DNA from: an uncultured Candidatus Saccharibacteria bacterium
GTDB lineage: Bacteria > Patescibacteriota > Minisyncoccia > JACPXH01
Length of the DNA stretch: 58,407 nucleotides
Direction of reading: 5' to 3'
Assembly: GCA_964409225.1 (NCBI GenBank)
Contig: CAYPCM010000004.1
Coordinates: 1 to 58,407, forward strand
Positions 2,454 through 56,495 of this stretch are shown here, in pieces. Each line of letters starts with the position of its first letter. Positions within the stretch are counted from its first letter, which is position 1. The notes below the pieces were generated by a model. The model saw nothing but the letters and a program-made list of their open reading frames with translations, made no database searches and had not been told where the DNA came from. The translations under genes and the position numbers were made by a program.

Positions 2454-4685
2454 GTGGCTAAGAGCATCGTTTCTCCCAACCTCGCAAGCCCCGTAGCCAA
2501 GCTGCCGCGGGTGCGGCCGCTGGTGGCCAAACGCCTCAAAAACCTCGGTGTCGAAACCGTGCGCGACCTGCTCTTGCATCTGCCCCGGCGATACGACGAT
2601 TTCTCGAACGTAACGCAAATCAGAAATTTACAAGTGGGGGAGACCACCTCGGTAAAGGGGGAGGTGGCGTGGGTCAAATCCCAACGTACTTGGCGCAAGC
2701 GCATGGTGATTACCGAAGCCGTCATTGCCGACAAAACCGGCTCGGTGCGCGCGGTTTGGTTCAACCAACCGTACCTTGCCGATTCTCTCCGGCAGGGATA
2801 TCTCGTCGCTGTTTCCGGCAAGGTGTCCCTCGACCAACGAGGCCTCGTCTTCTCTCACCCGTCACACGAGGTGCTCCGCGGAACGCGAAGCGAAAAAGGG
2901 GAGTCGGAAACACTGCACACGGGCCGGCTCGTCCCTGTTTATCCCGAAACCGCCGGCCTTACGAGCCGCTGGCTAAGGTTCCTTATCCAACCGCTCGTAA
3001 AATCAGTAGGGGATTTACCCGATCCCCTGCCGGCTGAAACCCTGCGCCGCCACAAACTCCCTTTTTTCGGTGAAGCGCTTCAACAAGCTCACTTCCCTAC
3101 CAATCTCGAAACAGCCAAAGAGGGGAGACGGCGGCTCGCCTTTGAAGAACTGCTTTTAATCCAACTCGCCCACCAAAAGGCGCGGCGGAAAGTGAAAACG
3201 CTGGCCGCGCCCGCAATCACCCTCAACCTTGAAACAGTCAAGGCCTTTGTCGCTGCCCTACCCTTCGCCCTTACCAATGCCCAGCGCAAAGCCGCCTGGG
3301 AAATCCTGCAGGACATTACCAAGCCCCACCCGATGGCGAGGTTGCTGGAGGGCGACGTGGGCTCTGGTAAAACCGCGGTGGCGGCAATCGCCGCGAATGC
3401 AGCCGCTCATGCCGGCTATCAAACTGCTTTCATGGCGCCCACTGAAATACTCGCGCGCCAACACTTTTACACGCTCAATAAACTCTTTGCACACACACCC
3501 CACTCGGTTGGATTACTGACAAACTCTGAGGCACGGATTGCGCGAGGCGGCACAGAAGAAACGATGCCGAAGCGCCGTCTGGTCGCAAGCGTCGAAGCCG
3601 AACTCATTGACGTGCTGGTGGGGACGCACGCACTGCTGCAAAAAAACGTCTCCATACCCAAGCTCGCCTTCGTCGTCGTTGATGAGCAGCATCGGTTCGG
3701 GGTGGAGCAGCGAGCCGCACTAATGCGGAACCACGAACCAGAAATAAAAAAACTGGGAGAAGCAAACGAAATCAAAATTCAAAATTCAAAATTCAAAATT
3801 CCTCATTTATTGAGCATGTCTGCCACCCCCATTCCCCGCACCCTCGCACTAACTATCTACGGCGATCTGGATCTGTCGATCCTCAACGAACTGCCCAAAG
3901 GCAGACGTGCCATTGAAACGCGGCTGCTCCCGCCGGTTGAACGCAAACGCGCGTACAAATTCGTCCGCGATCAAGTTCGGCTGGGTCGGCAAGCGTTCGT
4001 CATCTGCCCGCGCATCGACCCCCAGAGCGCAGACGAACGCGGAAGTGTTATGCGCGAGTCCGCGTTCCACCAACGTCAGTCCGCGCTTGCGCTATGGGAG
4101 GTAAAAGCAGTCACAGACGAATATCAGAAACTTTCTAAAACAATATTTCCTGACCTGAGGGTGGGCATGCTGCACGGCAAGCTCCCGGCAAAGGAGAAAG
4201 CCAAAACAATGACGCAGTTTGCAAACGGTAATCTCGACATACTCGTGTCCACCTCTGTCGTGGAAGTCGGCGTGGACATCCCCAACGCGACCGTGATGAT
4301 GATTGAGGGCGCGGAACACTTCGGTTTGGCGCAGTTATACCAATTTCGAGGCCGCGTGGGTCGAGCCGAACACCAGTCGTATTGCCTGTTATGCACCGAT
4401 TCCACGGCCAGAGCGGCGCATGAGCGCCTCAAAGCAATTGTCGAAGCGAAATCCGGCTTCGAGCTTGCGGAAAAAGATCTGCAGTTGCGAGGCCCGGGCG
4501 ATTTTCTGGGCACGCGCCAATCAGGGCTCCCAGATCTCGCCATGGCAAGCTTGTCAGACGGCCGACTCATCAAAGCCGCACGAACCGAAGCCGAGTTGCT
4601 GCTTCAACAAAACGCCGACCTCTCGCGCTGGCCGCTGCTCAAGCAACGCCTGACAGAGTTTGAAAATGAAGCCCACCTAGAATGA
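2454..4685 (+). CDS. recG: ATP-dependent DNA helicase RecG
   Basis: Wedge/OB domain, GDVGSGKT, DEQHRFG, SATPIPRT, QFRGRVGR, RGPGDFLGTRQSG. Confidence 0.97.
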   Translation: MAKSIVSPNLASPVAKLPRVRPLVAKRLKNLGVETVRDLLLHLPRRYDDFSNVTQIRNLQVGETTSVKGEVAWVKSQRTWRKRMVITEAVIADKTGSVRAVWFNQPYLADSLRQGYLVAVSGKVSLDQRGLVFSHPSHEVLRGTRSEKGESETLHTGRLVPVYPETAGLTSRWLRFLIQPLVKSVGDLPDPLPAETLRRHKLPFFGEALQQAHFPTNLETAKEGRRRLAFEELLLIQLAHQKARRKVKTLAAPAITLNLETVKAFVAALPFALTNAQRKAAWEILQDITKPHPMARLLEGDVGSGKTAVAAIAANAAAHAGYQTAFMAPTEILARQHFYTLNKLFAHTPHSVGLLTNSEARIARGGTEETMPKRRLVASVEAELIDVLVGTHALLQKNVSIPKLAFVVVDEQHRFGVEQRAALMRNHEPEIKKLGEANEIKIQNSKFKIPHLLSMSATPIPRTLALTIYGDLDLSILNELPKGRRAIETRLLPPVERKRAYKFVRDQVRLGRQAFVICPRIDPQSADERGSVMRESAFHQRQSALALWEVKAVTDEYQKLSKTIFPDLRVGMLHGKLPAKEKAKTMTQFANGNLDILVSTSVVEVGVDIPNATVMMIEGAEHFGLAQLYQFRGRVGRAEHQSYCLLCTDSTARAAHERLKAIVEAKSGFELAEKDLQLRGPGDFLGTRQSGLPDLAMASLSDGRLIKAARTEAELLLQQNADLSRWPLLKQRLTEFENEAHLE

Positions 4686-35118: not shown

Positions 35119-35225
35119 ACGCGCCCGTTAGAAAACTTACCGTGAGCGCTTTATCTCAAGAAGTATTCCCAAGTTTGCGTACGGCCGAGTAACTCATTAC
35201 GCAGCAGGTTTTCTAACGGGCGCGT
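35119..35225. repeat. CCCGTTAGAAA/TTTCTAACGGG inverted-repeat element overlapping the tRNA 5' end
   Basis: ACGCGCCCGTTAGAAAAC (35119-35136) pairs with GTTTTCTAACGGGCGCGT (35208-35225). Confidence 0.8.
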
Positions 35226-48416: not shown

Positions 48417-51257
48417 TTACGGACGCTCGGGCGACTCGATCCGCCTCTCCCCCTTCTCCTCCACCGGCGCCTCTGTCCGCGCCTCCGGCGTAGGCGCCGG
48501 CGGCGCAATGCCTTGAAGCGCATCTTGGCCGCCTCTAAGATTTTCCAGAATGCGCTTCACCTCCTGATTGTCGGGATTGAGCGCCGCCACTTTCTCAAAC
48601 TGTTGAATGGCTTTTTCTTTTTCGTTATTGCCGTCGTAAATAAGCCCGAGGAAATAGCGGGCATTAGAGAAGTTCTGATCCAGCCCCACCGCCCGTTCAA
48701 ACGCCGTCTGCGCACTCACTCGATCATTCGACTTATAGAGCAGAAATCCAAGCTGGAACCAAATCCCCGCGTCGTTCGGCGCCGCTTGCGCCAATTGTGC
48801 GGCCCGGTTTACGGCACTCGGTAAATCGCCCTGCCGGTCAAACACCTGCACCAAGAGGAAATGCGCCGGTCCAAAATCGGGTTTCAGTTCGAGCGCTTCT
48901 TCTAGAAACTGTTTTGCGCCGCTAAGCAGAGACGTGCGTTCGTTTTCCATTGACTTAATCTGCTCAGCCGCCTGCTGGTTGCTTTTGAGCTGCTGAATTT
49001 GGTTGGCAATGCGATCGGCAGTGCTCACGGCCGTGCGCGCCGTAAACAGTTTCGCCAGCGGGTTTACCGGATCAAGCTGGCCGGCCGCGCTATAAGCTAT
49101 ACGCGCCTCGCCTTCAGCGCCCGGCACCAGCGGCAACACGTTTTCGTATGCGAGCCCCAACGTAATCCAGTTCTGCGCATCCAGTCGGTTCAACGCCACC
49201 GCCTGACGGGCCGACTGAATGGCGTTTTGAATCGTGCCTTCAAGCTGGTTGCGCGTGGTCTGCACATCTGCTTCATTCGGCCGAAAGTCCGCAATTGTCC
49301 GCGACGCCTGCAACAGGAATGCCTGCGTGAGCGAACGATAATACGCCGGTTCTGACCCCCAGAATTGCACCGCCCGCACCAAGTGAGCCACCGCCCGGCT
49401 GGGGTCGCCCCCGCGGTTCAACCTCTCCAACCCAAACCCGTAAAACACCGTGGAAGCATAACGCTGCAACTCCAGATACCCGCCCGCCACGCCCGCAATC
49501 ATAAACAGTATTATAAGGAATGACGCGCCGAGCGTTCGATGCGAACTGCGGTACAAATCCCACCGCCGTTCGATATCGCCCATCCTATCAGTCCTATTTG
49601 TCCTATCTGTCCTATTGGACTTATCGACCCAATCAGTCCTATCCGTCCAATCCGTCCTATTTGTCATTCCGGGCTCGACCCGGAATCCACGATCGGACTT
49701 ATCGCTCCCGCCGTCGTCCCCGCCGCCGCCCGTCGCCGCAACCAGCCGCACGCTCGGCCGCTCGAAGAACGCGAATGCGCCGGTAAGCCCAAGCAACAAA
49801 GCATAAGTGGCCAGATTCAAAGAATACATAAACCACACTGCCCAGCCGAACACAATCGCGCCAAATATGCCGAGCGCAAGTTCGGGGTGCTCGCCCTTTC
49901 CCGATCGGTAAAGCGCGCGCACTGCCGCCAGCCCAAACAAAGCCATAAGCCCGAGCCAAGCAACCACACCCAGATACCCCTGCCCGGCCATTACGTTTAC
50001 GAGCGCCGACCGGCCTTGGTCAAACCGCACGCCCCAGAACGCAGTCGCGTTCAAGGCCTGCGGTTTGAAGCGGCTGTAGCCGTAGCCGAACGTGCCCGGC
50101 CCTGTACCCAGCAGAAGGCCAACTGGTCCGCGTTCAGTGAGCGCCCGCTGCGCCACTGACAGCGAAACGCCGTAGCCCGGAGAGACCTCGAGCGGCAGGT
50201 CTATAAAGGGCTTGGCCAGCGGAATCTTAAATAACGCGAGGAGCACCGATAGCGCCAACACCAGCATCGGCAACGCCAGGCCCCGCGGCAGCGCCCGCCG
50301 CTCCGGTGATTCGTCGTCCGGATTTTTGATTTTTGATTTTTGATTTTTGATTTCGGAATTTGTCCTTCCCATCACAAACGCCACCATCGCCGCCATGGCC
50401 ACCGCCAGTCCAAGCCACGTCCACCGCAGGTTTATAACCACAATGTTAATCAGGAATATGACCCCGGCCGCCCCGTACCCAAGCCGCGCCACGGCCGAAA
50501 GCCGCTCCTCGCGGGACTTCGTCGCCATGCCAATCAAAAGCACAAGCAAAATGCCAAACACAACCCCCAGATGGTTTTGACTTCCTGCGCCCGCAAAGTT
50601 GAGGTTCCGGCTGAACTCCCACGGCAAAAGGAAGGTACCCGTCACCTGAATCAAATTGAACGCGCCATAGATCGCCGCCGCTCCAATCAACCACCCCACG
50701 GCACGGCGCACGTCGTCAGCCGAGCGCCACAAGGCGGTAATCAAAAAGGCAAACAGCCCCAGACCCAAAATTCCGGGCAATGCCTCGTGGCTTAAACCGA
50801 TGTTGGCGAAGCTTTGCGTGGGCGCGGCGGAAAAGAACGCGGCCGCAACGCCAACCGCCGTGACGGCGAATATCCCCCAGTGCATAAGCGACTTGCGATA
50901 ACGCACCTCGCCGGTGGCCAGCGCCTCGCCCAGCCAACACAATAGCGCCCCCAGCACGAGCATTGCGAACACAAACTCTTTATTGAGTTCAACCGGCGCC
51001 GCCGTAATCGGCAGAAACACAAACGGCACGAGCGCGAACGCCGCATACAGCAGCCGTCGGCCCACGCTGAGCCACCATGTTTCGTCTGCAGCCGCCACTT
51101 CCCCCGGTGTAACCGCCGCGCGAATCCGTCCCAGCAGCCCTATCGGTCCTATTGGACTTATTGGACTTATTGGTCCTATCGGACCCATTGATTCCGTTAC
51201 CGGCTCCACCGACTCTGCCGGCGCTACCTCCTCCTTCCGACGCGGAAATACGTCCAT
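48417..51257 (-). CDS. O-antigen-ligase-like multi-pass membrane protein with C-terminal TPRs
   Basis: Many TM helices, LLGTGPGTF, TPR repeats (AHFLL, IWFQLG, ARYFLG). Confidence 0.85.
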   Translation of the reverse strand: MDVFPRRKEEVAPAESVEPVTESMGPIGPISPISPIGPIGLLGRIRAAVTPGEVAAADETWWLSVGRRLLYAAFALVPFVFLPITAAPVELNKEFVFAMLVLGALLCWLGEALATGEVRYRKSLMHWGIFAVTAVGVAAAFFSAAPTQSFANIGLSHEALPGILGLGLFAFLITALWRSADDVRRAVGWLIGAAAIYGAFNLIQVTGTFLLPWEFSRNLNFAGAGSQNHLGVVFGILLVLLIGMATKSREERLSAVARLGYGAAGVIFLINIVVINLRWTWLGLAVAMAAMVAFVMGRTNSEIKNQKSKIKNPDDESPERRALPRGLALPMLVLALSVLLALFKIPLAKPFIDLPLEVSPGYGVSLSVAQRALTERGPVGLLLGTGPGTFGYGYSRFKPQALNATAFWGVRFDQGRSALVNVMAGQGYLGVVAWLGLMALFGLAAVRALYRSGKGEHPELALGIFGAIVFGWAVWFMYSLNLATYALLLGLTGAFAFFERPSVRLVAATGGGGDDGGSDKSDRGFRVEPGMTNRTDWTDRTDWVDKSNRTDRTNRTDRMGDIERRWDLYRSSHRTLGASFLIILFMIAGVAGGYLELQRYASTVFYGFGLERLNRGGDPSRAVAHLVRAVQFWGSEPAYYRSLTQAFLLQASRTIADFRPNEADVQTTRNQLEGTIQNAIQSARQAVALNRLDAQNWITLGLAYENVLPLVPGAEGEARIAYSAAGQLDPVNPLAKLFTARTAVSTADRIANQIQQLKSNQQAAEQIKSMENERTSLLSGAKQFLEEALELKPDFGPAHFLLVQVFDRQGDLPSAVNRAAQLAQAAPNDAGIWFQLGFLLYKSNDRVSAQTAFERAVGLDQNFSNARYFLGLIYDGNNEKEKAIQQFEKVAALNPDNQEVKRILENLRGGQDALQGIAPPAPTPEARTEAPVEEKGERRIESPERP

Positions 51258-51312
51258 AAAATTGATCTTATTAGTCTTATCAGGCCTATTCGACTTATTG
51301 GTCTTATTAGTC

Positions 51313-51906
51313 CTATCGTCCCCAAATCTGCCTCTTCCTCTCTTCAATCCGCTTCTGAAAAAGCCGTTCTGTCCACCCGCCTTCTTTCACAAACTGCTCT
51401 TCGAGCGCCCGAATTTGTCGGTCCAGCAGAAAATTCACCTGATGGATGAGGCAAATCGCCGCATTCGCCGCCGTCTCCGGCTCGTCTAAATAAGACCTAT
51501 AAGTCCAATAAGTCCTATCTGACTTATCTGACTTATTGGTCTTATCCGTCCTATCGGACCTATACACCAACCCCCTCACTGCCTTAGCTTCCGGATCATC
51601 TTTCCCCCACTGCCTTAAGCCCCGCTGGCGCAAAAAGTCCTCATAGTCCTCTAATAACTCCTGAAACGATGCCCGCGCAACCCCGAGGAGCTTGAGCTCG
51701 CCTTTCTCAGAAGTTCGCTCGGTCGAGCCCTCCACGATATTTTGCTTGCCGGATCGCGCGGCTTGCACCATCTGGTCCGTCGTCCTATTGGACCTATATG
51801 ACTTATCGGACTTATCCGTCGCTCGAACGTAGCGGTCGCAAAATTCCACCGTGTAGTCGTAAATAATCACCGCCTGCTGATAAGATTTAAGTTCTCTATA
51901 GCTCAT
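51313..51906 (-). CDS. Four-helix-bundle protein with suffix domain (23S-IVP/Avd-like family)
   Basis: YRELKSYQ, DQMVQAARSGKQNIVEGS, VARAS..ELLEDYEDFLRQR, FVKEGG.TE. Confidence 0.88.
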   Translation of the reverse strand: MSYRELKSYQQAVIIYDYTVEFCDRYVRATDKSDKSYRSNRTTDQMVQAARSGKQNIVEGSTERTSEKGELKLLGVARASFQELLEDYEDFLRQRGLRQWGKDDPEAKAVRGLVYRSDRTDKTNKSDKSDRTYWTYRSYLDEPETAANAAICLIHQVNFLLDRQIRALEEQFVKEGGWTERLFQKRIEERKRQIWGR

Positions 51907-52037
51907 ATTCGTCTTACTAGCTGATAGACCCTATCAGTCCTATTGGTCTTATTAGTCCTATCGGCCTTATTTGACTTATCCGTCCTATCGCCCCAGCAGA
52001 TACAACTGCTTCACCTCTTGAGCCGTCAGCGCGCGGT

Positions 52038-52295
52038 TTACCCCGTGAAATACGATTTGAGGCGTCTACGCAAAAACATTTTGCCCCTATACGATTTTAA
52101 AACTCGCTCTCTCCTGCTCGCATCATCTTGTTTCTTACACGCTTCATAATAAATGAGCTCAAGCGGCCTGCGATCTTTTGTTGACTCAACCCATCCTTTC
52201 TGGTGTTCCTCAAATCGTGATTGTAAATTTTTTGTATAACCAGTATAAAGTTGCTTGTCTTTATGGCTAAAAAGTACGTATGTGTAGTAAAACAT
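52038..52295 (-). CDS. GIY-YIG nuclease (small standalone)
   Basis: YTYVL..LYTGYT..L..RF.EH..G...TK.RRP.ELIYYE....A..RE..LK. Confidence 0.93.
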   Translation of the reverse strand: MFYYTYVLFSHKDKQLYTGYTKNLQSRFEEHQKGWVESTKDRRPLELIYYEACKKQDDASRRERVLKSYRGKMFLRRRLKSYFTG

Positions 52296-52331
52296 ATTCT
52301 GTTGCAAAAAATTTACAATATTTCACGGGGT
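52040..52331. mobile_element. GIY-YIG mini-element with 13-bp terminal inverted repeats
   Basis: ACCCCGTGAAATA (52040-52052) / TATTTCACGGGGT (52319-52331). Confidence 0.8.
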
Positions 52332-52352
52332 GGAGATGCGGACTTGTTATAA

Positions 52353-54578
52353 TTAACGACCCATATTATAGAGTTGCTTTACTTCAGCAGCACTCAATGC
52401 CCGATTATACACCCGGACTTCGTCAATGAGGCCGTCAATATAATTGCCATCTGACCTTCTTCCAATTTCCAGATTTTTAGTTAAATCTTGAGTACTATTC
52501 AAAGCGGCATTAACTTCGCTTCTATCAAGCACCCCATCGAGATAAAATTTAAGAGTAGTACCTCCTGCATATGTCAACACAAAATGATACCACCTATTAG
52601 TTTGTAACGACGTTCCTCCCGCTTCAATATCTATATAATGAAAATCTGAAGCTCCACCAGTATTATCCATGGCTATTCCGCCACCTTTAGTTACGCCTCC
52701 TGATGTTAGAGTTCTAACTTCAAATTGATTATTTGCCCCTTTGGTAATTAGCATATCGTAATCAGGTGGCAATGTATCAAAATATGCCCAAGCAGAAACA
52801 GTCATACCATTAGTAGGGTCAAAATTAAGTGATGAAGCTGCAGAAACACTCACATAATCATCACTCCCGTCAAAACTCAATGCCTGTCCGAGTTTGCCGA
52901 TGGCGGGGGCGGTGGAGGTGGACATGTTGGTGATGGTGCCGTCGTTGCCTTGACCCGAGCGATCATAGGCCTTGTTGGCGGTAAAGCTCACATCCGGGCC
53001 GTCGAAGGACCATTCGCCCACCAAGCTTGAATCGCGCAAGCGAATGTTTTGCGAAGTGTTTGCGCGCACAGAGCCGGCCAGATACAACTGCTTCACCTCT
53101 TGAGCCGTCAGCGCGCGGTTATAGACGCGGACTTCGTCAATGAGGCCGGGGAAACGTAAATCGTCTGCAGAGTTCACTTTTCTATTACCTATTCTACATG
53201 TTTCCGCGCCTGTAATGTCACCGATCCAATTTGAATCATCATGCGGACCTCCACTTCGCTCTGTCAAAGATTGAGATACGCCATCAACATATATTTTCGG
53301 AGCAACCGCATCTTGAACGGCGACCACATGATGCCATACATTTTCACTAACCGCTGGTGTTGAATAGTTCATTTCATTACCAGACGGCGGGTACGCATAC
53401 AGTCCTATAAATTTTGTCCCATTTCCTTCCGAGCTATACTCAATAGCCAAGACATTAAACGCGTCTGTTGATTTGCTGACACTAAAGAGCGCCCCTCTGT
53501 TAGTGTTACTTGCTTTAAACCAAAAACTAATACTTCCTTTTGTAAAACTAGAGATCAATTGCCCAAGAACATTTGTCCCATCGGCTGGACACGATACATA
53601 ATCATCACTCCCATCAAAACTCAACGCTTGGCCGAGTTTGCCGATGGCGGGGGCGGTTGAGGTGGACATGTTGGTGATGGTGCCGTCGTTGCCTTGACCC
53701 GAACGGTCATAGGCCTTGTTCGCGGCAAAACTCACGTCTGCCCCGTCAAACGACCACTCACCCACCAAGCTTGAGTCGCGGAACCGGATGTTCTGCGAGG
53801 TGTTCACATGCGCAGCGCCGGCCAGATATAGCTGCTTCACCTCTTGAGCCGTCAGCGCGCGGTTATAGATGCGGACTTCGTCAATGAGGCCGTTGAAGTC
53901 ATACTCTGCCGCAAGAGAATTATAGATGCCGATGAGAAAAGAAACCGTCTCCGTGGGAAGCGACACGGTGGCAGTTTCTGTCGCCTCCTGGACGCCGTTG
54001 ATGTAGACGCGAAGTGTATTGCTGCCATTGTAAGTCGCCGCGCCGTGATACCAGCGACCCGGAACGATAGTGGTTGTCGTGTCGTCATCGCCGACGACTG
54101 TCGTGCCATCGTAGACGAGGCAACGCAACCGGTCGTTCGTGTTGTTGATATAACAGGAGTAACCGCTCCCGTCCGCCGAATCACGACGGGAGAATATGTA
54201 GTTATTGGTATCGTGAATCGCATTGGCCTTGAACCAAAATGAAGCCGTCCAACCAGTTGTAACATTCAATGACGAGTTAGTCCCCGCATTTACATAATCA
54301 TCACTCCCATCAAAACTCAACGCTTGGCCGAGTTTGCCGATGGCGGGGGCGGTTGAGGTGGACATGTTGGTGATAGCGCCGTTGTTGCCGCTTCCCGATC
54401 GGTCTGACGCGATGTTCGTGGTGAAATTCACATCCGGGCCGTCGAACGTCCAATACCCCACCATGCCGAGGTTATTGATGGGTCGCGTGATGCGCCCGCC
54501 GGCAGAAACATCTCTGCCAAAGCCAAAAAGGAATACACCGAGGAGAATAAAGAAAAATGCGAGAGAAAACTTTTTCAT
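52353..54578 (-). CDS. Secreted protein with three LamG/concanavalin-A-like domains
   Basis: Signal peptide; 3x W.FDG...GKLGQALSFDGSDDYV...GLIDEVR.YNRAL. Confidence 0.93.
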   Translation of the reverse strand: MKKFSLAFFFILLGVFLFGFGRDVSAGGRITRPINNLGMVGYWTFDGPDVNFTTNIASDRSGSGNNGAITNMSTSTAPAIGKLGQALSFDGSDDYVNAGTNSSLNVTTGWTASFWFKANAIHDTNNYIFSRRDSADGSGYSCYINNTNDRLRCLVYDGTTVVGDDDTTTTIVPGRWYHGAATYNGSNTLRVYINGVQEATETATVSLPTETVSFLIGIYNSLAAEYDFNGLIDEVRIYNRALTAQEVKQLYLAGAAHVNTSQNIRFRDSSLVGEWSFDGADVSFAANKAYDRSGQGNDGTITNMSTSTAPAIGKLGQALSFDGSDDYVSCPADGTNVLGQLISSFTKGSISFWFKASNTNRGALFSVSKSTDAFNVLAIEYSSEGNGTKFIGLYAYPPSGNEMNYSTPAVSENVWHHVVAVQDAVAPKIYVDGVSQSLTERSGGPHDDSNWIGDITGAETCRIGNRKVNSADDLRFPGLIDEVRVYNRALTAQEVKQLYLAGSVRANTSQNIRLRDSSLVGEWSFDGPDVSFTANKAYDRSGQGNDGTITNMSTSTAPAIGKLGQALSFDGSDDYVSVSAASSLNFDPTNGMTVSAWAYFDTLPPDYDMLITKGANNQFEVRTLTSGGVTKGGGIAMDNTGGASDFHYIDIEAGGTSLQTNRWYHFVLTYAGGTTLKFYLDGVLDRSEVNAALNSTQDLTKNLEIGRRSDGNYIDGLIDEVRVYNRALSAAEVKQLYNMGR

Positions 54579-55040: not shown

Positions 55041-55685
55041 TCACCGGAACTCCCACGTCTGTAAAATCTTACCCAGCAGATCGTCCATCTCCGCATAAGC
55101 GGTGATTTGATACAGATACCCGCCGGACACAAACCACACTTCGCGCGTGTTCCCGAGCGAATCGTCGCGGCTTAAAAAGGCGAGCGCGTTTTCGCCGCCC
55201 ACCGAGACGGTCTGCGGCGTATCAATCGCCATGTCCGGAATGTCTTTCCGGATGCGCTCGGGCGTGATGGGGCCGGGCTTGCCCTGAGCGGGGTCGAAGG
55301 GCTCGTCGAATTCCGAAATGCGAATCTGGAACTCCTGCTTCTGGTCGTTTGGGTTGCGCATAAGCACTGTTTCGCCGTTGTCGTCTGGCGGCAGGGCGGT
55401 AACGGTGAACCCGGCCGGATAGCGGAACGAAAAATACGGTTTCGGGTGAGTATAAACGAGCGCGCCGGTTTCGCCGGCCGATTCTAACGACTTACGGCTA
55501 GTAGGGTCTGACCCTCCTGCGAGCGCATCTGCCCCGCCGGTTTTAACGATCGGATTTTCGGAAACAGCGGCCGGCTGCGGAGAACGCCTCAACGAAACGA
55601 ACGCGAATATCCCCGCCAGCACAAGAACGACGGCAATGAATACCGCGGGTCTTTTTGCGAATAACTCTAAGAATGGCTTTGCCAT
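55041..55685 (-). CDS. Membrane-anchored PsbP-like protein
   Basis: N-terminal TM, FSFRYP, GYLYQIT, KILQTWEF. Confidence 0.7.
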   Translation of the reverse strand: MAKPFLELFAKRPAVFIAVVLVLAGIFAFVSLRRSPQPAAVSENPIVKTGGADALAGGSDPTSRKSLESAGETGALVYTHPKPYFSFRYPAGFTVTALPPDDNGETVLMRNPNDQKQEFQIRISEFDEPFDPAQGKPGPITPERIRKDIPDMAIDTPQTVSVGGENALAFLSRDDSLGNTREVWFVSGGYLYQITAYAEMDDLLGKILQTWEFR

Positions 55686-56484
55686 AAAGTTATCTAATCG
55701 GCTCCAGCCCCATAAAGTAGGGTCAGACCCTACTTTTGCTTATTCGATGATCTCCTGGCCGAATTCTGTTTGGCCGGCCTTAAAACGAATCCATTCTGCC
55801 ACAACTTCTCTACACCTCTTTTCACTGCCGTAGAAATCAAGAAAAAAATTACGGTCCACGACATGAAGGAACTTTGGTTCCCCAATATAATCGTTATAGC
55901 TTGATGCCCAATATCCCTCGAGTTCTTTGATTGCCCTCCCCGGGTTTTTGACTTTATGTTCTTTCCAACCCGGTTCCCAGAGTTCTACCGGATTGGTGTG
56001 CACGTATGCAAAGACGGCATTCAGCTGCACATCATTTTGAATTCGTACCGCCCTAAAACGCGACTGGAAAAGCGTACCAACCCTATCGTACTGTTTGTTA
56101 AAATAGGTGGAGTAGCCGCCCATTTTTTGCATGAATTGGGAAATGCCGCCTTCCTTGATTTCACGAAGAATGACATGAAAATGATTGGGCATAAGTGTAA
56201 ATGCCAACACTTCAACTATGGGAACATTTTTCATTTTGCGCTTTTCTTCAAGCCGCTTCACTAGCTTAATAGGAGGGTCTGACCCTACTATTAACGCCCA
56301 GAGGTCTGTGGATTCGGGAGTGTTACAAAACTCCAAACCCAAAATAAACCTGTGGTAATCTTGGGGTTTCAGAAAAATTTTACGTTTCTCAACCCCGCGC
56401 TTCACTACATGATAGATTCCGTTTATTTCAAATTGTCTTGGTTGTCTTGGCATGATAGTAAACAATAGGAGGGTCTGACCCTAC
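55501..56484. repeat. Four REP palindromes G[T/G]AGGGTC[T/A]GACCCT[A/C]C
   Basis: 55501-55517, 55714-55736, 56266-56294, 56468-56484. Confidence 0.88.
55740..56453 (-). CDS. REP-associated tyrosine transposase (RAYT, IS200/Y1 HUH family)
   Basis: YHVVKRG, MPNHFH (HUH), LFQSRF, YVHTNPV. Confidence 0.92.
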   Translation of the reverse strand: MPRQPRQFEINGIYHVVKRGVEKRKIFLKPQDYHRFILGLEFCNTPESTDLWALIVGSDPPIKLVKRLEEKRKMKNVPIVEVLAFTLMPNHFHVILREIKEGGISQFMQKMGGYSTYFNKQYDRVGTLFQSRFRAVRIQNDVQLNAVFAYVHTNPVELWEPGWKEHKVKNPGRAIKELEGYWASSYNDYIGEPKFLHVVDRNFFLDFYGSEKRCREVVAEWIRFKAGQTEFGQEIIE

Positions 56485-56495
56485 TTTGCTACTTA

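Follow-up and report, generated by a model that had tools for sequence, protein, structure and literature searches.

A GIY-YIG nuclease gene enclosed in its own hairpin: a candidate selfish mobile unit in a Candidatus Saccharibacteria genome

The nearest known system to the locus described here is that of Ssn (CDD cd10448), a group of 94-aa single-domain GIY-YIG proteins that bind the NTS/SRM hairpin repeat (Chenal et al. 2025; PMC11893778). According to the text of that article, Ssn cleavage is restricted to single-stranded DNA (ssDNA) beside the hairpin, the identity of the loop is irrelevant or the loop altogether dispensable, and two separate strands can form the stem. Such hairpins are found near 71% of ssn genes, and the authors noted that the hairpin–gene–hairpin arrangement resembles an insertion sequence, comparing it with REP/RAYT and IS200/IS605 (PMC11893778). 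Here we analyze a 292-bp unit in a stretch of 58,407 nt from an uncultured Candidatus Saccharibacteria bacterium (assembly GCA_964409225.1, contig CAYPCM010000004.1, positions 1 to 58,407, hereafter the window), in which a small GIY-YIG nuclease gene is enclosed by a single inverted repeat. There is, in our judgment, about an even chance that this unit is a selfish, mobile, Ssn-like nuclease-in-hairpin and a member of a widespread family of small selfish units, moving in a way that we infer by analogy with Ssn. The family is apparently undescribed.

Two further groups of systems invite comparison. Like the unit, REP/REPIN–RAYT and IS200/IS605 combine dispersed short hairpins with a single-copy gene thought to act on them in ssDNA, lack a classical target duplication, and insert beside a short preferred sequence. 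Their enzymes are HUH/Y1 transposases, which cut and rejoin DNA via a covalent intermediate. RAYT genes are flanked by REPs, whereas the gene of the unit is enclosed in its hairpin. The GIY-YIG homing endonucleases, such as I-TevI and the Seg proteins, share with the unit a GIY-YIG core, an association with conserved host-gene motifs, and spread together with flanking DNA. These enzymes have a separate DNA-binding domain and a length of 200-250 aa, and they are not known to be enclosed by an inverted repeat or to have hairpin derivatives lacking the gene.

The unit and its gene occupy the following positions.

52040-52331, minus strand: core unit, arm to arm, 292 bp, 38% G+C, with homologous units at 160 other loci.
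52319-52331, minus strand: 5' arm of helix P1, ACCCCGTGAAATA, 23 nt upstream of the ATG.
52040-52052, minus strand: 3' arm of helix P1, TATTTCACGGGGT, which doubles as the codons Y-F-T-G and the T of the stop codon.
52038-52295, minus strand: coding sequence of an 85-aa single-domain GIY-YIG nuclease, with the likely start ATG at 52293-52295.

A repeat search of the window recovers the two 13-bp arms as exactly complementary (100%) with a spacing of 266 nt, and the last codons of the nuclease gene, TAT TTC ACG GGG T(AA), are the 3' arm itself. Both the perfect repeat around the gene and its coding role had been described in a first-pass annotation of the window, and both descriptions are correct. 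ACCCCGTGAAATA and its reverse complement are the only two exact copies of this sequence in the window and in the 883,525-base genome, which has a G+C content of 56%, against 38% in the unit. Since the window contains 57 inverted pairs of at least 12 nt within 400 nt, a 13-bp repeat is unremarkable by itself; it is non-random because it is conserved in homologous loci.

The sole open reading frame (ORF) of the unit, at 52038-52307 on the minus strand, belongs to the GIY-YIG superfamily (Pfam PF01541, E 1.7e-14, 54.3 bits against a cut-off of 22.6), and this single Pfam domain spans residues 7-73 of the 89-aa ORF. No DDE, serine, tyrosine, or HUH transposase is encoded in the unit, and the 85-aa protein consists of the catalytic domain alone, with no separate DNA-binding domain. 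Residues Y5, Y16, G18, R26, H30, and E50 are retained in 98-100% of 110 relatives; with R61, E62, and the C-terminal RLKSY.TG included, retention is 95-100%. We take the tyrosine of GIY, the tyrosine and glycine of YIG, and the arginine, histidine, and glutamate of the window protein to be catalytic. NCBIfam, PHROGs, and PADLOC hold no family for the protein, and an Rfam scan of 51000-53200 at E<=1 returned a chance microRNA match alone (22.5 bits against a gathering score of 80).

In comparison with Ssn, as presented in the text of PMC11893778, the unit also encodes a single-domain GIY-YIG protein of about 85-95 aa, and its gene is likewise tied to a cognate hairpin repeat, copies of which are scattered through some genomes. 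The two differ in sequence and layout. The NTS, CGTCATTCCCGCG...GCGGGAATC, is unrelated to the arms of the unit, TTYACCCNGTGAAAT..., and the unit has no NTS-like flanks. Furthermore, the ssn gene lies between two separate hairpins, whereas the gene of the unit lies inside one, its coding sequence carries two extra staple helices, and orphan duplicates of host-gene ends stand alongside it. Given the dispensable loop and the two-strand stem of the Ssn substrate, a stem with a whole gene as its loop would be possible. The first-pass annotation had remarked that small standalone GIY-YIG proteins usually have no mobility role assigned, a view overtaken by Ssn, whose members are hairpin-specific ssDNA nucleases with hairpin-flanked genes (PMC11893778). 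Full-text literature searching returned no description of this repeat-bounded clade; PMC11893778 alone is relevant to it, and its supplementary tables could list members.

A gene resembling a classical ssn gene is also present in this genome (loci, genomes, and contigs are cited below by our own L, G, and C handles). The paralog at C34:2064-2276 is 34% identical to the window protein (E 6e-8) and is flanked by CGTCATTCCG...CGGAATC hairpins; it is these NTS-like hairpins that give it a classical Ssn appearance. The genome contains nine NTS/SRM-like hairpins (CATTCCGKGC...GGAATC), four of them around the C34 paralog. Two are in the window, at 48275-48298 and 49665-49687, located 3.7 and 2.3 kb from the unit, and one window hairpin falls inside a 976-aa ORF (48417-51347) that may be composite.

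Protein scans for relatives of the nuclease covered species genomes (best 80 of at least 158 relatives, from 599 candidate stretches; 61-76% identity) and metagenomes (best 80 of 288 relatives, from 596 candidate stretches; 63-83% identity). The record titles of these relatives name Patescibacteria groups, Bacteroidota, Balneolota, Pseudomonadota, Elusimicrobiota, Cloacimonadota, Chloroflexota, and Planctomycetota, and the nearest among those listed (83-71% identity) come from metagenomes and other phyla. In the window and at 160 other loci, the gene ends in 13 bases that complement a 13-mer located 8-93 nt upstream of the start. The units carry terminal inverted repeats at both ends, as insertion sequences do. 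The arms have no mismatch at 42 of the 161 loci, one at 65, two at 30, three at 20, four at 3, and six at 1, that is, at most one mismatch in 107 and at most three in 157. The first-pass annotation had proposed collecting homologs to look for conserved flanks, and had named homologs without the repeat at a fixed syntenic position as the finding that would speak against a mobile unit. The collection shows the repeat retained in those 157 loci, which are spread over many surroundings: collapsing loci with similar flanks reduces the 155 usable of the 161 to 114 contexts.

The two arms of a unit match each other better than arms combined at random do. Watson-Crick pairs occupy 1528 of 1824 arm cells, compared with a mean of 1481 (sd 9, maximum 1511) in 1000 permutations of the right arms. 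Compensatory arm pairs such as GTTAAAT/ATTTAAC and GTCAAAT/ATTTGAC occur despite the accompanying change from Phe to Leu in the protein. Covariation also links the outermost arm base to the third position of the Gly codon, and the free central position of the arm coincides with the third base of the Thr codon.

P1 is one of three helices that run through the leader and the coding sequence. The arms of the other two are as follows.

52305-52319, minus strand: 5' arm of helix P2, in the leader, ATTGTAAATTTTTTG, 15 nt, 100% complementary to 52220-52234.
52220-52234, minus strand: 3' arm of helix P2, in the coding sequence, codons T-K-N-L-Q in the region of the YIG motif.
52208-52218, minus strand: 5' arm of helix P3, in the coding sequence, ACGATTTGAGG, codons R-F-E.
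52052-52062, minus strand: 3' arm of helix P3, CCTCAAATCGT, codons L-K-S, contiguous with the 3' arm of P1.

Leader and coding sequence share perfectly complementary stretches whose maximum length averages 12.1 nt over the 114 contexts, compared with 6.5 nt for shuffled coding sequence, and among relatives the P2 positions interchange between A-T, T-A, G-C, and C-G. P3 was found by RNAalifold on an alignment of 99 units (the window and 98 of 111 eligible contexts). In the columns of this alignment P1 occupies 1-12/296-307, P2 13-26/115-128, and P3 129-137/287-295. The three helices abut with zero unpaired bases at the junction, forming a gap-free three-way junction.

Shuffled controls support the selection of this fold. 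Paired cells make up 92.9% of the 3267 in the 99 sequences, against 85.6% in the shuffles. Two-sided changes affect 18 of 34 pairs and 203 cells, whereas the shuffles give 12.1 pairs and 45.7 +/- 9.5 cells, and none of 500 shuffles reaches either value. When partner columns are slid by 1-3 positions, pairing falls to 26-58%. Column 130/294 offers the plainest example: here an Arg codon (AGA or CGA) changes together with a Ser codon (TCT or TCG) some 160 nt distant, with A-U in 73 rows, C-G in 23, and a broken pair in 3. P2 has a lower pairing of 84%, partly because rows with a leader one base shorter, including the window, misalign by one column. Folding of the 300 nt from the window alone also recovers P1, P2, and P3, with z scores of -6.3 for the DNA coding strand, -6.5 for the other DNA strand, and -4.4 for RNA.

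The same arms are found without the gene. Additional arm-like 10-mers lie near the gene in 44 of 154 loci, several of them as arm pairs that close a short loop. In these gene-less pairs the arms are 15-50 nt apart, often around small G+C-rich hairpins, and at L157 one such hairpin is directly in tandem with a full unit. A pattern search of five gene-bearing genomes counted 19, 1, 31, 39, and 1 gene-less hairpins, while the reversed control gave 0 in all five. Gene-less derivatives that share the ends of the unit, as miniature inverted-repeat transposable elements share those of their parents, thus exist in genomes other than the present one. The first-pass suggestion that the nuclease may mobilize related non-coding repeat elements fits the hosts with 19, 31, and 39 hairpins; it finds no counterpart here, since this genome contains no gene-less hairpin with these arms and the window no small CCCCGT...ACGGGG hairpin.

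A possible decayed mini derivative is located at C6:25566-25632 (L179 4566-4632), an intergenic stretch GTAAACCCCGCTAGAATA ... GATTTCACGGGGTAAAACCGCAAC that matches the 3' end of the unit over 15 nt and continues with an NR..QLY reading similar to the tail of a LamG gene. It lies 1.3 kb from a third GIY-YIG paralog (C6:26964-27167). At L083 (~2860-2900), L137 (downstream of the gene), and L157 (1401-1500), a full unit stands in tandem with shortened ones, whose internal deletion joins the 5' arm to the final 20-25 nt of the gene.

The distribution of the unit is patchy. The genome of the same genus gave no match to its protein, and among 101 class relatives 20 have a match at E<=1e-20, of which only 2 exceed 60% identity, one of these having two stop codons. 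In the genus around locus L071, the unit is present in 9 of 31 genomes; in G071 it is on a contig different from both L071 flank genes, and G097 has both of these genes and lacks the unit. The flanks within that genus are too diverged for base-level alignment, and the search for an empty site there shows only that the position is not conserved. One metagenome-assembled genome (MAG) holds two copies identical at 290 of 293 positions between unrelated flanks, the identity extending from the A of the 5' arm to just beyond the 3' TGAA. Of the autonomous mobile element proposed in the first-pass annotation, what can be retained is a bounded, gene-carrying selfish or mobile unit, found in 114 contexts with a patchy distribution and as near-identical copies in one MAG.

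The bases next to the unit follow a loose pattern in the 114 contexts, most of which are intergenic. The left four bases resemble T-T-Y-A (TTCA 30, TTTA 20, CTTG 20) and the right four T-R-A-A (TAAA 53, TGAA 24). TTCA goes with TAAA in 24 contexts and TTTA with TGAA in 15, and the two combinations with full complementarity occur in only 2 contexts each. Under this rule, TTCA/TAAA and TTTA/TGAA, one strand has a well-formed 5-bp hairpin at either end and the other a C-A mismatch. Flank classes are scattered over the protein tree, a quick and poorly resolved tree with 3 starred branches of 109. Because near-identical units differ in their left four bases, these at least behave as target rather than element.

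Other explanations of the flanks were considered. Identical tetranucleotide pairs flank the unit in 8 of the 114 contexts, so that there is no target duplication of fixed length, and models of a 4-bp target duplication and of a palindromic target both fail for most contexts. A role of the right-hand TAAA/TGAA solely in supplying a stop codon is weakened by the gene-less hairpins, which on inspection by eye carry the same flank types. In the class with a CTTG flank, one tRNA was found in 26 loci, in a non-adjacent position. Repeats between the flanks exceed the shuffled maximum in 15 of 110 contexts.

Two host motifs recur next to the unit. In the window and at L004, L110, L121, and L137, the unit is followed directly by an orphan LamG tail that starts at the Asn of NRAL; the site is the same to within one base, L004 having one additional A at the right junction. 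L127 retains only the left half of the LamG tail, and at L104 the tail is split at another point. At L004, L110, L121, L127, and L137, as in the window, an intact LamG gene, complete with a tail, is found a short way upstream of the unit. The second motif is found at 17 loci, mainly in Bacteroidota and Balneolota, where an orphan epimerase start, M..LVTGGAGF(I), abuts the 5' arm and is followed by the unit, a spacer, and an intact epimerase gene, a layout that is the mirror image of the LamG one. The direct repeats between the orphan and the start of the gene measure 134/134, 136/136, and 84/84 bp, with a further near-perfect one of 212 bp. Their right end is always TTCA(T/C)C by the 5' arm, whereas the left end is variable and may reach the 3' end of the nuclease gene. 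The same site is thus occupied in different lineages, at 6 loci for the LamG tail and 17 for the Rossmann motif, always with an intact gene beside it. At such short, conserved, multi-copy motifs, recombination at microhomology would be favored. At L083, the epimerase 5' end is present in three successive copies.

The LamG site in the window can be followed in detail, since uninterrupted copies of it are close by.

52353-54578, minus strand: intact LamG gene of 741 aa with three modules (Pfam Laminin_G_3, E 3e-82, 3 stretches), upstream of the unit.
52353-52406, minus strand: working tail of this gene, NRALSAAEVKQLYNMGR and stop, 40% G+C, about 75% identical to the other tails.
52334-52345, minus strand: orphan left half of a LamG tail, AAGTCCGCATCT, read as (E)VRI, 12/12 identical to 53867-53878.
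51985-52038, minus strand: orphan right half of the LamG tail, NRALTAQEVKQLYLLGR and stop, 59% G+C, beginning AAC CGC GCG.
53079-53134, minus strand: uninterrupted paralogous site, tail of module 2, identified from sequence repeats.
53823-53878, minus strand: uninterrupted paralogous site, tail of module 1, identified from sequence repeats.

On the minus strand the flanks translate to (E)VRI(S), then the unit, then NRALTAQEVKQLYLLGR and stop, and the nuclease stop codon TAA (52038-52040) shares a base with the start of the orphan Asn codon. Positions 51997-52038 are 42/42 identical to 53079-53120 and 95% identical to 53823-53864. Together with the 12/12 match of the left half, this bears out the first-pass statement that the LamG block is uninterrupted at about 53081-53135 and 53823-53880. 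The unit had been described as inserted into a LamG remnant, and its flanks are indeed the two halves of a tail motif. The split copy is, more precisely, an orphan duplicate placed after the stop codon of an intact gene, which has a complete tail of its own, VRVYNRALSAAEVKQLYNMGR and stop, ends in ...GLIDEVRVYNRALSAAEVKQLYNMGR and stop, and is separated from the orphan tail copy by a spacer of 8 nt. Relative to the uninterrupted copies, the junctions contain about three extra bases (TCC-A ... T-AAA). The first-pass remark that no target duplication is evident stands; the junction with the pre-insertion site it described is not clean.

The composition of the tails is informative. With 59% G+C the orphan tail resembles those of modules 1 and 2, and with 40% the working tail resembles the unit; upstream of the VRxY codons, identity to the native modules returns after no more than about 20 nt. 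These values point to the possibility that the working tail arrived together with the unit. On this basis, some 375 bp, comprising a replacement tail, the spacer, a scrap of the previous target, and the unit, may have come jointly from a donor of low G+C content, in which case the orphan would be the native tail. The genome has eight intact LamG tails, and the unit is in none of them. A second multi-module LamG gene (~55300-58400) with three intact VR[IV]YNRAL tails adjoins the first one, and on C34 two further LamG tails (343, 1000) are located downstream of the Ssn-like paralog. Twice in this genome, then, a LamG gene and a small GIY-YIG gene are neighbors.

By analogy with Ssn, movement of the unit could proceed as follows. 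The protein would recognize the P1 stem in ssDNA, at replication forks or in incoming DNA, and nick beside it, with P2 and P3 acting as staples that enable P1 to form across the 266-nt loop. The nick or the excised strand would then be copied or repaired into new sites with the help of host functions. Preferred sites would be T-T-Y-A / T-R-A-A-like sequences or short conserved coding motifs present in many copies, such as LamG tails and Rossmann N-termini. Neighboring DNA would often be carried along with the unit, which would explain the intact host gene beside the orphan fragment. The unit in this genome looks like a single recent arrival without other substrates.

Several observations weigh against this reading of the unit as a mobile nuclease-in-hairpin. 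The genome has no gene-less hairpin with the arms of the unit, apart from the doubtful remnant C6:25566-25632, and two of the five gene-bearing genomes hold one small hairpin each. In the five genomes there are 1-3 close copies per genome, unlike in proliferating insertion sequences. Recent pairs share one flank over at least 40 nt (left in L159/L169, right in L061/L082), so neighboring DNA is often copied along with the unit, and recombination fits this one-flank sharing better than clean cut-and-paste does. The junction at the LamG site fits neither a tidy insertion nor a clean duplication of the target. In the contigs of four DNA sequencing runs we saw neither an excision product nor an empty allele, and no circular or single-stranded form of the unit either. 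Arm mismatches of the G-T and A-C types are equally frequent (96 and 102), singling out neither strand. The best solved relatives of the protein are the UPF0213 members BH0048 (1zg2, E 2.3e-4) and EF2693 (1ywl, E 8.4e-4), matched over about 66-72 residues, which are small single-domain proteins of the same size, with no association with repeats recorded in the literature consulted. Finally, a GIY-YIG nuclease cuts DNA and, to our knowledge, does not rejoin it; since it hydrolyzes only, a host function must complete any move.

Joints in read layouts such as 52035>52414 were considered as traces of excision. Their sides measure 20-29 letters with 10 other letters between, and they correspond to intact LamG tails of paralogs or of other organisms, which makes them neutral evidence.

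The alternative that survives best, although we think it unlikely, is a homing-type spread. A break or nick at the host motif (LamG VRIY/NRAL, Rossmann GAGFI/G) in an allele or paralog without the unit would be repaired by homologous copying of the unit and its neighboring DNA, and the hairpin would serve expression control or self-immunity. Such a process would agree with the same LamG position being used at five loci by nucleases from different parts of the tree, with the left half at L127, and with the Rossmann motif abutted at 17 loci. The duplication of host-gene ends while the gene stays intact, the sharing of one flank, and the low copy number also fit, and a working tail of 40% G+C next to an orphan of 59% is as expected from co-conversion with a donor. 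However, most contexts are intergenic and show a TTYA/TRAA-like flank alone, with no host motif, and the eight intact LamG tails of this genome are unoccupied. Homing also leaves unexplained the dozens of dispersed gene-less hairpins with the same arms and the selection for a structure in which the precise termini of the unit are brought together. Moreover, an 85-aa protein without a separate DNA-binding domain is unlike the known GIY-YIG homing enzymes, as the text of PMC11893778 also states.

Next in order comes a structure of the messenger RNA (mRNA), for which we see a small chance. Pairing between leader and coding sequence would regulate how the message is translated, processed, or stabilized, the nuclease being harmful when made in excess; the gene would be transferred passively, and the small hairpins would be unrelated REP-like terminators that share the motif. 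The fold is predicted as RNA too (z -4.4), the start codon and leader lie in or beside P2, and covariation by itself cannot separate RNA from ssDNA. Phage homing-endonuclease genes offer a precedent, hiding their ribosome-binding sites in hairpins. Against an RNA structure, G-U pairs are rare (about 60 of the 3267 cells, 19 of them at the outermost pair), whereas RNA stems usually tolerate them, and the complementarity looks more DNA-level than a typical RNA stem does, which is suggestive only. Because G-U cells are few and G-T and A-C mismatches equal in number, the data single out no strand. In addition, the same arms bound gene-less DNA repeats dispersed genome-wide, P1 marks both the limit of identity of recent copies and the limit of the insert in the LamG tail, and 51000-53200 has no match to an Rfam family.

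That a resident gene happens to carry an inverted repeat, or that the locus is an artefact of assembly, is highly improbable: the 57 inverted pairs in the window do make such a repeat cheap, but this one is conserved in 157 of 161 loci and covaries, and contigs from the four DNA runs, which belong to one study, cross both junctions unchanged, weak support in that these runs may be the source of the assembly.

The surroundings of the unit contain other repeats. Arrays of 9-nt tandem units (GTCCTATYGG / GACTTATYGG) are found at 51119-51334, 51489-51577, 51782-51829, and 51910-52006. They flank, and interrupt in frame, a four-helix-bundle gene at 51313-51906 (23S rRNA intervening-sequence type, TIGR02436 with a TIGR04258 suffix) and extend to the N-terminus of the 976-aa TPR ORF, while the last array abuts the orphan LamG tail. 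Six of eight genome matches to GACTTATYGG are on this contig. A four-helix-bundle gene of the same 23S rRNA type follows the orphan LamG tail both in the window and in the Berkelbacteria locus L004 (~3400-3800), with different subtypes, the L004 gene being read from translation. This shared neighbor could be a matter of chance, such genes being common in these genomes, or part of a larger traveling block. Two further inverted pairs, at 35119-35136 / 35208-35225 (18 nt, 100%, 71 nt between) and 55500-55518 / 55716-55734 (19 nt, 95%, 197 nt between), are unrelated in sequence to the unit.

The text of the Ssn article leaves open whether Ssn-type proteins have a role outside Neisseria and whether hairpin–gene–hairpin arrangements act as mobile elements (PMC11893778). 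The family described here is a sharper test case for these questions, with a gene nested in its own hairpin and natural gene-less derivatives. The ends of the unit are defined within a few bases by the identity limits of recent copies and by split host motifs. Synonymous codons 160 nt apart covary to keep the fold, which is unusually clear evidence of selection for structure inside a coding sequence.

More tentatively, and with less confidence than in the mobility of the unit itself, we propose a new class of minimal prokaryotic mobile element. In such an element a hydrolytic, Ssn-like ssDNA nuclease would be encoded by a gene that forms the loop of the very hairpin it recognizes, held together by co-evolved staple helices. 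The element would colonize short, conserved, multi-copy coding motifs while bringing a replacement gene end that lets the host gene survive, and the same enzyme would seed or maintain genome-wide REP-like hairpins in Patescibacteria, Bacteroidota, and others. For annotation, many "hypothetical GIY-YIG" genes and the orphan gene fragments adjacent to them form one unit. If it is true that the nuclease cuts P1 in ssDNA, the widespread REP-like repeats of uncultivated bacteria would be explained, and the family would offer enzyme/site pairs of new specificity for the ssDNA toolbox.

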